A stretch of DNA of 64,000 nucleotides from an uncultured virus (IMG/VR IMGVR_UViG_3300050821_005794) (lineage: Duplodnaviria; Heunggongvirae; Uroviricota; Caudoviricetes): IMG/VR virus record IMGVR_UViG_3300050821_005794; one strand, given 5' to 3'. The notes beneath the pieces were generated by a model. It was not told where the DNA came from, searched no databases, and was given only the letters and a program-made list of their open reading frames with translations. Positions 2,984-43,505 of the stretch are shown one piece after another; the stretch's first letter is position 1; every line of letters starts with the position of its first letter. The position numbers and the translations under genes are program-made.

Positions 2984-3036
2984 CGTATATTGCGACCATC
3001 CTATAGAGTGACACTGTAGGATGTGCGGAGTATGCG
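2984..3036 (+). other. long intergenic hairpin 1 (RNase III-like site candidate)
   Basis: CGTATAT/GTATGCG and CATCCTATAG/CTGTAGGATG stems between stop and next RBS. Confidence 0.55.
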
Positions 3037-40199: not shown

Positions 40200-40369
40200 T
40201 GAAGCTGTACGAACCTCTGTATTCGTCTTTCAGTGGCCCGCCCAAAGCATTCTACTGTTCAGTTTGTGAACAAGTCTGCAAGACCAAGCGGGGTGTATTG
40301 ATTCATCTTTTTCGTAAGCACCAATTGAAAGAACAACAGGACCTGCCATTTGACAATCTGCTACGTTGA
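40199..40369 (+). CDS. small C2H2-type zinc finger protein (absent from ORF track)
   Basis: GTG start; FYCSVC..HLFRKH; 56 aa. Confidence 0.55.
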   Translation: MKLYEPLYSSFSGPPKAFYCSVCEQVCKTKRGVLIHLFRKHQLKEQQDLPFDNLLR

Positions 40370-43300
40370 TTTTGAGACGAAATGCATTCTAGATTTGAAA
40401 ACTTGTGGCCTCGATAGGTATTCCAAAAAAGCTGAAGTTTTAATGCTTGGCTGGGCCTTCGATGAAGACGATGTTCAAATTTGGGAGCCGCGATTCGGGC
40501 CGTTACCAAAAGAAATTATGGCGGCTATAAAATCAGATTGTACTTTGGTTGCTTGGAATTCAGGATTTGAACGATCGATTTTCAAACACGTACTTGGAAT
40601 TGACATTCCTATTGACCGCTGGCTAGACCCCTCGGTGTACGCTAGAACGTTATCCCTTCCGGGCAGTTTGCAATCTACAAGCGACATACTAGGTTTGGGC
40701 GACCAAGGTAAGGATGAAGATGGCAAGAGACTTATCAAATTGTTCTGTGAACCCGCCTCGATGGGCGGCGAATTAACATTATTTGGCATAACCGAACCTT
40801 ACTTTCGCGAACCTGAGAAACATTTAGAAGACTGGGAAAAATTCAAAGAATACTGTAGGCAAGACGTTAGGGCCGAGCGAAAAATCCTAAAGGACTTGGA
40901 ACAATTCGTGCCACCAGAAATAGAACGGAGAGTTTGGTGCCTTGACCAACGCATAAACGAAACAGGCGTGCCTGTAAATCGCGAATTTGTAAAAAAAGCT
41001 CTTACCTTGGCCGAACGAAGTAAAGAAGAACTTCAAACCGCGCTGAAAGAAAAAACCCAACTAGAAAATCCCAATTCGCGCGACCAGATGCTTGAGTGGT
41101 GCCGAAGCCAGAGGTATCCCTTTCAATCTCTAGAAAAAGCCTCTGTAAACTACGCTCTTAGTGGCAAGAACATTACCGACTTGTGCCGCGAAGTCCTGTT
41201 GCTGCGCAAGGAAGCGGCCAAGACATCGTACATGAAACTAAGCGCGATTTTGAATAGATTAGGCGATGATAATTATCTGCGGGATCAATTTAAATATTTG
41301 GGTGCCGCGAGAACCGGAAGATGGAGCGGTGGCGGTGGTGGGAGAGAAAAAGGTGGCGTTCAATTTCAGAACATGCCGCGCCCAACCAAGGAAGTAGAGA
41401 AAAATCTAGAAAAAACGATAGCTCAGATTGAGGCTCTAGATTACGAAGATATCAAAGCCGCGCACCCTTCAGTGATTACCGCCGTGACTTCGTGCATTCG
41501 GTCGGCGTTCCAATCTCCGGTAGGTAAAAAATTCATAGTGTGCGATTTGAGCGCAATTGAAAATCGAGTCTTAGGGTGGCTGGCCGGTGAAGACAAAATT
41601 CTACAAGTCTTCATGGATAACCTGGACCCGTATATCGCTTTTGCTGTTCTAATGTACAACAAAACCTATGATGAGCTTCTGAACGACAAAGAGAAAAGAC
41701 AGATTAGTAAATCAGCCGTTTTGGGGTGTTTTGGGGATGGCACTCTAGTTCTCACACAGCGCGGTTGGGTACCAATTCTAGATGTTCAAATAAAAGACCA
41801 GTTGTGGGACGGAAAAGAATGGGTTTCGCATCAAGGTATAGTTTGCCAAGGGCGGAGAATTGTGGTACAATTAAATGGCGTATTAGCTACGCCAGAACAT
41901 GAGATTCTAACTGAGGAAGGGAATTGGAACACAGCATGGGAATTACTTCAAAATACCCAATTAGAGAAAAAGGCTATAGATTTGGCGAATGGGAAGTTGT
42001 TTGCAGCAACAGAACAAAACGGGACTTCCAGTATGTCTGTACCTGCACGAAATGTGGAACAGAAAAATCCATTGACCGAAACAATCTGGAACTCGGAAAA
42101 ACAAGGTCTTGCGTTATTTGTGCAAACAAAAAAATTCTTGAACAGAAAGGCAGCATCTATTTGGAGTTCCGAGAGTGCGGTAGGGACAATATTGATAGAT
42201 TGGCGAATAGGTATTATGCCATTCTTTCCCGCTGCCGTGGAGCTTCGTACGCAGCACACAGATACGCAGGACGCGGCATTGAATGCCATTTCTCTTCTGT
42301 CTATGATTTCATCCGGTACGCGACTACTTTGGCAGGATGGGATAATCCCACGTTGCAGATTGATCGGAAAAACAATGATGGGCATTATGAGAGAGGTAAC
42401 CTTCGGTTTGTTTCCGCAAAAATTAACAACCGCAATAAAGAAAATCTTCGATGGATTAAATGGAACGGAATGCTCTATACGGCAACCGGGTTTTGGGAAA
42501 AGTACTGCCCTCGCTATCGCGATGCAGGAACAGTGTGCAGGAAAATTCGAGAAGGACTCTCCCCAGAAAGAATCATTGCAGACCAAGCCAAATGTAAAGG
42601 TCCCTACTTACGACATTCTAAACGCAGGACCGCGAAATAGATTTACAATTCTGACGGACAAAGGACCGATGATTGTTCATAATTGCGGCTATGGGCTTGG
42701 CTCTGGTGTGGCCCGCGTTTGCAAAAATTGTAAGACTCATTGGTGGGCCAAGGATGCAATGTGCCCCAAAAAGAAATGTGGGTCGCGAGAATTCGAATAC
42801 GAAGCTATTCTAAAGGACAATGGCTACGGCGATCTGATGCGTACGGGGTTGCTGGCCTACGCAGAAAACATGGGTGTCATTATGACGCCACGCCAAGCAT
42901 ATATCGCGCAGCAAACATTCAGGAAAGCCTATACAAAGGTTGTAGAGTTGTGGGCCGCATTGGAAGCGGCGGCCAAGCAAAGTATTTCAGAAGGAATAGA
43001 TGTCACAGTAGGGACGGTGGTATTTAGCCGACTGGAATTCGGCGGTCAATATATTTTAAGAATTACTTTACCATCTGGCCGCAGCCTTCACTATATGAAC
43101 GTTCAGCTAGTTACAAGGTCGCTAGTTGGTGCAGACGGCAGAGAATACGAAAAACAAACTATTATGTATGATGGGATCGGGCATGGGGTAGGAGAGGTTT
43201 CAGAAGCGGAAGGCGGGAAAGGCTCAAAGTGGGGACCGACGTATTCGTACGGAGGCAAGCTCGCGGAAAACATTACACAAGCAATCGCTAGAGACATCCT

Positions 43301-43505
43301 GGCCTATGGGATGCTATTGGCCGATGAAGCCGGTGCTAATATTTGTGCTCATGCGCATGATGAAGTAATTTGTTTGGCCGATGACAACGCTCTTGACTTT
43401 GGATTAGACGATCTGAGATACTATATGTCGCAGTCGCCTAGCTGGGCTAAAGACCTTCCCTTGGCCGCTGAGGGGTATTGTGACCGACTTTACCGAAAAA
43501 ATTAA
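40350..43505 (+). CDS. family A DNA polymerase with 3'-5' exonuclease, intein-containing
   Basis: VDFET, AWNSGFER, RTGRWSG, CDLSAIENR (motif A), KSAVLG/CGYG (motif B) and HAHDE (motif C). Confidence 0.95.
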   Translation: MTICYVDFETKCILDLKTCGLDRYSKKAEVLMLGWAFDEDDVQIWEPRFGPLPKEIMAAIKSDCTLVAWNSGFERSIFKHVLGIDIPIDRWLDPSVYARTLSLPGSLQSTSDILGLGDQGKDEDGKRLIKLFCEPASMGGELTLFGITEPYFREPEKHLEDWEKFKEYCRQDVRAERKILKDLEQFVPPEIERRVWCLDQRINETGVPVNREFVKKALTLAERSKEELQTALKEKTQLENPNSRDQMLEWCRSQRYPFQSLEKASVNYALSGKNITDLCREVLLLRKEAAKTSYMKLSAILNRLGDDNYLRDQFKYLGAARTGRWSGGGGGREKGGVQFQNMPRPTKEVEKNLEKTIAQIEALDYEDIKAAHPSVITAVTSCIRSAFQSPVGKKFIVCDLSAIENRVLGWLAGEDKILQVFMDNLDPYIAFAVLMYNKTYDELLNDKEKRQISKSAVLGCFGDGTLVLTQRGWVPILDVQIKDQLWDGKEWVSHQGIVCQGRRIVVQLNGVLATPEHEILTEEGNWNTAWELLQNTQLEKKAIDLANGKLFAATEQNGTSSMSVPARNVEQKNPLTETIWNSEKQGLALFVQTKKFLNRKAASIWSSESAVGTILIDWRIGIMPFFPAAVELRTQHTDTQDAALNAISLLSMISSGTRLLWQDGIIPRCRLIGKTMMGIMREVTFGLFPQKLTTAIKKIFDGLNGTECSIRQPGFGKSTALAIAMQEQCAGKFEKDSPQKESLQTKPNVKVPTYDILNAGPRNRFTILTDKGPMIVHNCGYGLGSGVARVCKNCKTHWWAKDAMCPKKKCGSREFEYEAILKDNGYGDLMRTGLLAYAENMGVIMTPRQAYIAQQTFRKAYTKVVELWAALEAAAKQSISEGIDVTVGTVVFSRLEFGGQYILRITLPSGRSLHYMNVQLVTRSLVGADGREYEKQTIMYDGIGHGVGEVSEAEGGKGSKWGPTYSYGGKLAENITQAIARDILAYGMLLADEAGANICAHAHDEVICLADDNALDFGLDDLRYYMSQSPSWAKDLPLAAEGYCDRLYRKN
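41727..42683 (+). mobile_element. intein (319 aa) inserted in polymerase motif B
   Basis: N-terminal CFGDGTLVLTQRGWVPI; block B ATPEHEIL; C-terminal TYDILNAGPRNRF..IVHN followed by Cys. Confidence 0.92.
41924..42640 (+). CDS. HNH homing endonuclease nested out of frame inside the intein
   Basis: CTCTKCG..TRSC, YAGRGI, IDRKNNDGHYERGNLRF..NNRNK; GAGGAAGG RBS-like sequence upstream. Confidence 0.85.
   Translation: MEHSMGITSKYPIREKGYRFGEWEVVCSNRTKRDFQYVCTCTKCGTEKSIDRNNLELGKTRSCVICANKKILEQKGSIYLEFRECGRDNIDRLANRYYAILSRCRGASYAAHRYAGRGIECHFSSVYDFIRYATTLAGWDNPTLQIDRKNNDGHYERGNLRFVSAKINNRNKENLRWIKWNGMLYTATGFWEKYCPRYRDAGTVCRKIREGLSPERIIADQAKCKGPYLRHSKRRTAK

Follow-up and report, generated by a model that had tools for sequence, protein, structure and literature searches.

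An HNH-like open reading frame nested out of frame in the intein of a phage family-A DNA polymerase

Inteins whose endonuclease is encoded in a reading frame of its own, and not in the frame of the host protein, have been described in 2025-26. Here we report on an arrangement of this type in an uncultured soil phage of the Caudoviricetes (IMG/VR record IMGVR_UViG_3300050821_005794), of which a stretch of 64,000 nucleotides (nt), hereafter called the window, was analysed. A family-A DNA polymerase gene in the window contains a class-1 intein, and we consider it very probable that this intein is mobile and that its homing endonuclease is a separate gene in the +2 frame, lying across the middle of the intein. 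The first-pass annotation of the window had offered this architecture as a possible novelty; with the literature of 2025-26 at hand, it is already described and not new.

An endonuclease in a separate frame of an intein reportedly has a precedent in work by Gorbalenya from 1998, which Phillips and colleagues cite. In a preprint, Gosselin, Arsenault, and Gogarten (bioRxiv 2025) describe actinobacteriophage inteins with the endonuclease in a separate frame, including one type, called a first report, in which an endonuclease VII-like gene lies “in reading frame 3 relative to the intein”. They propose that free-standing endonuclease genes invaded these inteins, and they point out that annotation misses such open reading frames (ORFs). 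As in the window, their endonuclease ORF is on the same strand, out of frame, and between the splicing blocks, while the extein frame is free of stops and its middle has no recognisable structure. Their frame 3 corresponds to the +2 frame of the window, the proposed invasion by a free-standing gene is the same, and the nested ORF was likewise missed by annotation. The two are nevertheless set apart by description: their endonuclease VII-like core covers residues 1-67, whereas the HNH-type motif of the window covers residues 144-172; the present hosts are helicases and family-A polymerases, found in uncultivated phages and in phages of Salmonella, Vibrio, Pseudomonas, Streptococcus, and Gardnerella; and a second clade here uses frame +1.

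Two further systems are close. Arsenault, Gosselin, and Gogarten (Genes 2025, PMC11855218) report the ShiLan-domain insertion in a mycobacteriophage DNA methylase, which hides an out-of-frame HNH gene while the host frame is kept free of stops. The host-frame peptide of ShiLan is predicted to be a harmless loop, much as the corresponding linker of the window seems to be a by-product. ShiLan has no detectable splicing domains, so that its peptide stays in the host protein, whereas the intein ends of the window would remove it. No ribosome-binding site was found there, and leaderless initiation was proposed; in contrast, Shine-Dalgarno (SD)-like starts are enriched in the loci described below. 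Phillips, DeSimone, and Gogarten (bioRxiv 10.64898/2026.09.14.751524) describe a cyanobacterial dnaX intein with an out-of-frame (+2) LAGLIDADG ORF under frame-dependent selection. It shares with the window an overlapping endonuclease ORF, selection that is low in the endonuclease frame and relaxed in the extein frame, and a sporadic distribution with intein-free alleles, but its endonuclease is of the LAGLIDADG type and not HNH-like, and its host is a cellular gene and not a phage polymerase.

Splicing domains associated with non-LAGLIDADG endonucleases are also known from phage replication genes. There the endonuclease is either part of an in-frame fusion or encoded between the two halves of a split gene; the window, in contrast, has an uninterrupted host gene on which the endonuclease is overprinted. 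Passages of a Jerseyvirus paper (PMC8425127) mention inteins and do not mention HNH, and PMC5418858 deals with the nested Rz/Rz1 genes, not with inteins. In the accessible literature we did not find the endonuclease family with an Arg variant that is described below, its family-A polymerase and helicase hosts, its presence in Jerseyvirus-type phages, the two clade-specific frames, or the SD-led starts.

The intein and the gene nested in it

The host gene and the intein are made up of the following parts, all on the + strand.

40350..43505, +: DNA polymerase precursor gene of the family-A type, 1051 amino acids (aa) including the intein (phrog_17, E 2.9e-95; Pfam DNA_pol_A, E 3.3e-07)
41709..41726, +: KSAVLG, the N-extein flank of the intein, predicted to form half of its homing site; empty relatives have an uninterrupted KPAVLG-(C/A/L)-GYGLG
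41727..42683, +: class-1 intein, 319 aa in the polymerase frame, between KSAVLG and CGYGLG, with CFGDG...ATPEH...TYDIL...IVHN, then C
41727..41999, +: N-terminal splicing part, residues 1-91, which folds in the AlphaFold2 model
42000..42584, +: polymerase-frame linker, intein residues 92-286, a likely by-product peptide of the overprinted gene
42594..42683, +: C-terminal splicing part, residues 290-319, ...YDILNAGPRNRF...IVHN, a block conserved in 11 inteins
42684..42701, +: C-extein side of the insertion site, CGYGLG, which aligns with intein-free relatives

The catalytic set expected of a class-1 intein is complete, with Cys1, T55 and H58 (in ATPEH), the terminal H318-N319, and a Cys at position +1. 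Eleven related inteins all have C1, T55, H58, and N319, and their penultimate residue is H, S, or G. When the polymerase-frame insert is aligned with 10 related inteins, conservation is seen at its two ends only. The AlphaFold2 model has the same outline: the predicted local distance difference test (pLDDT), taken in blocks of ten residues, is 93-97 for residues 1-70, 82 for residues 71-80, 73 for residues 81-90, and 93-95 in the C-terminal part, and it is below 50 throughout residues 92-286. In a Foldseek search with this model, rows 1-45 are all intein, Hint, or BIL domains, the best being the Ssp DnaB mini-intein (E 2.7e-3, probability 1.00); no row reached E<=1e-3. A Hint fold is thus predicted to be built by the N- and C-terminal parts. 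The Pfam and NCBIfam scan of the polymerase-frame intein (P0001) found no family, and its PHROG matches are limited to residues 16-85, within the N-terminal splicing end. Modelling and alignment together support the view that the linker, which is not conserved among the 11 inteins, is a by-product predicted to be unstructured.

Polymerase homologs are numerous (708 at E<=1e-20). Among the matches listed, the 5 closest polymerases that were aligned read KPAVLG-(C/A/L)-GYGLG across the site, and the intein is absent exactly there; these closest relatives are 57-69% identical to the polymerase of the window and 705-749 aa long. Four intein-bearing relatives have an insert of 307-320 aa at the same columns, and of the 119 homologs listed, 18 reach a length of at least 950 aa. 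In other words, the presence or absence of the intein is a precise polymorphism at a conserved host site, as is expected of a class-1 intein, and its distribution among the aligned polymerases is sporadic. We take the insertion site to be motif B of family-A polymerases (K..NFG..YG). Right after the intein lies a Cys-rich stretch, CKNCKTHWW...CPKKKC (42669-42770, +), with a weak match to Zn_ribbon_15 (E 0.22); a similar stretch, ...ICRTC..., occurs in intein-free relatives, which assigns it to the polymerase rather than to the intein. A blastn search of 41000-43505 against phage genomes found no match, and a search for related loci in viral contigs with the whole polymerase found 0 loci.

The gene nested in the intein has the following features.

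41913..41917, +: Shine-Dalgarno-like GAGGA, 6 nt upstream of the TTG of the nested ORF
41924..42640, +: nested ORF for an HNH-like, putative homing endonuclease, +2 frame, 238 aa; the frame is open over 41915-42640, with TTG at 41924 and an alternative ATG at 41936
42038..42121, +: Cys cluster of the nested protein, C39/C41/C44 ... C63/C66, in an N-terminal beta domain; C41 is invariant and C44 and C63 nearly so (n=29)
42353..42439, +: HNH-type motif of the nested protein, LQIDRKNNDGHYERGNLRFVSAKINNRNK, residues 144-172, with R148, N151, Y155, N159, and N171 invariant

The two frames overlap over 717 nt without a stop in either. The nested product (P0002) matches the PHROG family phrog_374, “HNH endonuclease” (E 8.5e-25), and phrog_3377 (E 5e-13), and it has 41 homologs in a large protein collection, 14 of them 40-61% identical and of similar length. 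An alignment of 29 sequences has the conserved blocks YGGRGI and DRxDNDGHYExGNLRxV, with C41, R117, I119, R148, N151, Y155, N159, and N171 invariant, and the AlphaFold model made from it reaches a mean pLDDT of 88.6. The Cys cluster probably binds zinc. At the two ends of the overlap, short stretches are true dual coding: at the 5' end (41924-41999) the helix of intein residues 70-87 in the polymerase frame shares its DNA with the HNH N-terminus, and at the 3' end (42600-42640) the C-terminal splicing block shares about 10-13 codons with the HNH tail.

Start signals were compared over the window and 18 further loci with the same layout, which are introduced below; these 19 loci are partly related, L002 and L007 being close relatives. 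An SD-like 4-mer lies 4-11 nt from a candidate start of the nested ORF in 17 of the 19, as against 6.6 expected from 2347 start-like triplets elsewhere in host genes, and motifs of five or more nucleotides precede 7 of the 19 (2.6 expected). Three of the loci (L004, L009, and L082) have AGGAGG at a spacing of 9 nt. Thus the intact 238-aa protein in a second stop-free frame and the RBS-like (ribosome-binding-site-like) sequence before it, both noticed in the first-pass annotation, hold up under homology, modelling, and counts across loci, as do its readings of the intein ends as clear splicing ends and of the polymerase-frame middle as having no recognisable endonuclease motif.

The layout is also unlikely to stem from errors in the assembly. 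Among assembled contigs, on which this check was based, one with a depth of 38, which may be the source of the window itself, has exactly the same sequence; a second, from another sample, crosses the 5' frame junction (41800-42118) with 0 differences; and a third, from a further sample, crosses the 3' junction (42437-42900), where it has 15 substitutions but no gap. No indel is listed in these contigs at either frame junction.

Which of the two frames is kept by selection was examined by comparing substitutions per codon position in 7 pairs of loci. Between the window and locus L008, the differences at positions 1/2/3 of the nested region are 0.35/0.27/0.64 in the HNH frame (aa identity 0.58) and 0.28/0.63/0.35 in the polymerase frame of the same DNA (aa identity 0.27), while the rest of the polymerase gives 0.49/0.40/0.69 (aa identity 0.40). 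The peak at position 3 of the HNH frame is present in all seven pairs, and the matching peak at position 2 of the polymerase frame, where each change alters the amino acid, is clear in five. In a nearly identical strain from another sample, the overlap differs by 6 substitutions; read in the HNH frame 4 of them are synonymous, and read in the polymerase frame 1 is, although these are small numbers. In each of the seven pairs the nested protein is more conserved than its host polymerase, a difference that fits either movement between hosts or strong constraint.

The polymerase frame, in turn, is open against expectation. When the HNH protein was re-coded with the codon usage of the window (30 ORFs, 10221 codons), 15 of 20000 trials gave a polymerase frame without stops, the mean being 6.3 stops. 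Conversely, synonymous shuffling in the polymerase frame left the HNH frame open in none of 5000 trials for the window, and in 0 or 1 of 5000 in all ten loci so treated. Taken together, these comparisons support a constraint that lies in the HNH frame and a polymerase frame kept open by selection, which is how the first-pass annotation had expected the two frames to behave.

One consequence may be visible on the opposite strand.

41948..42586, -: antisense ORF, 212 aa, codon-for-codon opposite the HNH frame

Family searches with this ORF (Pfam, NCBIfam, PHROG) gave no match. The HNH frame uses TTA once, CTA not at all, and TCA once, as against about 13 per 1000 for each in the window. An xTA codon followed by A or G makes a stop in the polymerase frame, and avoiding such codons would therefore also remove two of the three antisense stops. 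Long antisense ORFs of 155-280 codons lie over the nested ORF in 4 of 10 loci looked at, including L008 (280), L006 (195), and L001 (155). A third gene on this strand was considered and rejected, there being no family match and the avoidance of xTA codons offering an explanation; the antisense ORF is probably a by-product of keeping the polymerase frame open.

Recurrence, hosts, and mobility

The first eight polymerase genes compared all contain an out-of-frame nested HNH homolog, of 241-269 codons; they come from the window, Vibrio phage 97.13, Salmonella phages BPS11Q3 and VT223, Streptococcus phage Javan255, Gardnerella phage AB1, EBPR siphovirus 2, and Pseudomonas phage MR14. On a wider scale, 94 loci were fetched, and in 18 of them, from isolates and metagenomes, the HNH match lies wholly within an ORF of 552-1192 codons in another frame. 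Nested out-of-frame ORFs, which the first-pass annotation had suggested looking for in other phage inteins, are therefore a recurrent feature. Left out of this count were L011, L012, L014, and L040 (covered by an ORF of 289 codons, nature unknown); L016, which lies at the end of its contig, probably has the layout as well. Relative to the host gene, the window and the 18 loci have an offset of +2 in ten and +1 in nine, and the nested ORF is intact, with 215-352 codons, in 18 of the 19.

An HNH domain in frame with the polymerase was found in none of the 94 loci, although six HNH-frame ORFs of 305-480 codons could hide fusions (L017, L022, L026, L030, L032, and L094, with intein boundaries mapped in L017 only). 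A search of longer proteins (418-2000 aa) for an in-frame HNH domain also gave none at E<=1e-3, which is weak evidence. Related HNH domains do lie inside genes annotated as intein-containing polymerases. The nested ORF is missing from the annotation in all six GenBank phage records inspected (L002-L007), and in Salmonella phage VT223 the intein-containing polymerase is annotated as “endonuclease”.

The insertion sites are several. Fifteen of the 19 inteins lie at a polymerase site of the same type, in which K...(L/F)(G/A) is followed by the intein (C...N) and then by (C/S)xYG, and two (L021 and L071) lie at two other polymerase sites. Two loci have helicase hosts, L023 (985-3624; phrog_16, E 1.4e-72) and L082 (1030-3735; phrog_16, E 5.2e-82), each with a related intein and an HNH ORF nested in frame +1; the unit of intein and HNH gene is therefore not confined to polymerases. 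Short nested HNH proteins of 169-182 aa, lacking the C-terminal helical domain of about 65 aa, were seen in L015 (2495-3022), P0015, and P0018, and the intein of L015 is shorter in step (264 aa).

A quick maximum-likelihood tree (IQ-TREE) was made from 69 HNH-frame proteins, 19 nested and 50 free-standing, with incomplete and short ORFs left out. The ten +2 copies form one group (Shimodaira-Hasegawa-like approximate likelihood ratio test, 89), eight of the nine +1 copies fall in another group, and 48 of the 50 free-standing genes form a separate clade (98). The tree is drawn with a midpoint and without bootstrap, is unrooted in effect, and gives no direction of capture. The idea in the first-pass annotation that a free-standing HNH gene invaded a mini-intein is made plausible by the existence of at least 50 free-standing relatives.

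On the basis of these observations, the following cycle may be proposed. The polymerase mRNA would be translated in frame through the intein; the two splicing ends would fold into the Hint domain, and the middle of about 195 residues would be an unstructured, unselected peptide whose only requirement is to be free of stop codons; and the whole intein would then splice out to leave an intact polymerase. Ribosomes would also start internally at GAGGA-6 nt-TTG (41913-41926) and make the 238-aa HNH-like protein. Polymerase alleles without the intein are the expected target of this protein, with a cut in or close to the DNA that encodes KPAVLG|CGYGLG, and repair would copy the intein together with its nested gene into the cut allele (homing).

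The nature of the nested protein and other explanations

Several results weigh against this proposal. The Pfam and NCBIfam scan of the nested protein gave no match, and Pfam HNH_3 touches one of the 29 family members (E 0.022). Foldseek with the model of the nested protein against the PDB gave nothing at E<=1e-3, the best being the Gme HNH nickase (E 0.44), and the top structural match of VIA-align, the PacI HNH nuclease, is middling (Z 6.0, root-mean-square deviation 3.1, 84 residues, model residues 77-175). The motif aligns weakly with that of I-HmuI (E 0.62), with DR opposite DH, so that the position of the catalytic His, the general base, appears in this weak alignment as R148, the Arg that is invariant in the 29 sequences. 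The nuclease assignment, drawn from PHROG names, the I-HmuI motif match, and the PacI structural match, is accordingly soft. A look for RNA runs containing the stretch found none. That the nested ORF is translated we infer, and three loci (L001, L005, and L006) have no convincing SD before it. The nested ORF of L015 has 176 codons only, and in L017 (1976-3031) the tblastn HNH match continues beyond a stop codon, reaching 3082 although the open frame ends at 3031; some nested copies, such as that of L017, may be decaying. Finally, in a weaker control, in which the HNH ORF of the window was shuffled with its own codons, the polymerase frame remained open in 620 of 5000 trials (12%), which suggests that this codon set is already adapted; over ten loci the same control gave 0 of 5000 in four and at most 90 of 5000 in eight, a result that speaks for the polymerase frame being kept open.

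Some of these points are balanced by the protein itself. N159 and N171 align with Asn residues of I-HmuI, and the conserved Asn residues of an HNH motif are present, N151, N159, and N171 being invariant. The Arg is kept in all 29 sequences, free-standing genes among them, and is therefore a trait of the family and not a sign of decay. A weak match to phrog_1035, “endonuclease VII” (E 1.8e-4), was also found, and a language-model atlas places the nested protein among viral “hypothetical” clusters, where the nearest named entries are I-HmuI NUMOD-like and NUMOD1 (scores 0.90-0.91; leads only). The nested protein is thus best called HNH-like, and at the gene level it behaves like a homing endonuclease.

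Of the other explanations, the one that survives best is that the nested protein is real and expressed and yet is not a DNA-cutting homing enzyme, for example a DNA-binding factor or the helper of another nuclease. Such a role would agree with an invariant Arg in place of the general-base His, with the weak matches to solved HNH nucleases, and with the missing curated-family match. We nevertheless think it unlikely, in view of the PHROG families annotated as HNH endonuclease, the conserved fold-typical Asn residues and Cys cluster, and a spread like that of homing genes, with many free-standing phage copies, nested copies at no fewer than five insertion sites, and intein-free alleles nearby.

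Still less probable is the view that the nested ORF is an unexpressed relic, in other words that a mini-intein with a long neutral linker has retained an old endonuclease frame. The inferred status of its translation, the Arg at the catalytic His position, the truncated copy of L015, and the possibly broken copy of L017 could all be read in this way, and the preprint of Gosselin et al. (2025) says that such ORFs could become pseudogenes. A relic is, however, hard to reconcile with purifying selection in the HNH frame in 7 of 7 pairs, with ORFs intact in all but one of the loci, with enriched SD-like starts, with an Arg that free-standing genes also keep, and with an HNH protein more conserved than the host polymerase (0.58 vs 0.40 between the window and L008).

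Programmed ribosomal frameshifting, by which the HNH domain would be made within the intein protein through a shift into the HNH frame and another back, seems very improbable. The +2 frame does correspond to a -1 shift, and it opens inside the polymerase ORF. Against this, a TGA at 41912-41914 closes the HNH frame, no slippery heptamer of the form X XXY YYZ was seen by eye over 41915-41936 (a reading made without a formal scan), two shifts would be required, the nine loci with the +1 offset would need a different mechanism, and the enriched signals are those of an SD followed by a start.

That two compensating sequencing or assembly indels displaced an ordinary in-frame HNH domain, as the HNH domains within genes annotated as intein-containing polymerases might suggest, is hardly credible, since the HNH domain is out of frame in the window and in the 18 loci checked and in frame in none, the contigs of other samples cross both junctions without gaps, the polymerase frame is free of stops against expectation, and the substitutions follow the HNH frame; the first-pass annotation had allowed for such errors, and the recurrence of the layout in independent genomes speaks for its being real.

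A probable mobile intein with a putative, separately encoded endonuclease

As regards annotation, nested genes have been overlooked in the GenBank phage records inspected, in one of which the host polymerase carries the label of an endonuclease. For protein engineering, a nonsense linker of 200 residues would give a measure of the unstructured sequence that can be accommodated between the halves of a Hint domain. Cultivable phages with the same layout would provide a tractable system for studying splicing, internal initiation, and homing by a histidine-less relative of HNH enzymes.

The SD-like starts bear on a question raised by the papers of 2025, namely, how hidden endonucleases are translated. 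More generally, where the origin of inteins is seen as “splicing domain first, endonuclease later”, the present observations contribute a broad lineage, selection in the endonuclease frame, and ordinary Shine-Dalgarno starts.

It is conceivable, and we put this forward tentatively as something a little short of an even chance, that these loci represent an old, large, and unannotated lineage in which a mini-intein and a separately translated Arg-variant HNH gene form one two-gene mobile unit, with the frame fixed in each clade (+2 or +1), which has passed between no fewer than three polymerase and two helicase sites and occurs even in phages as well studied as the Salmonella Jerseyviruses. If this is true, the family would be a variant of the beta-beta-alpha-Me nucleases that works without the canonical histidine, and the out-of-frame state would be a stable end state of these inteins, not a short-lived step toward an in-frame fusion.

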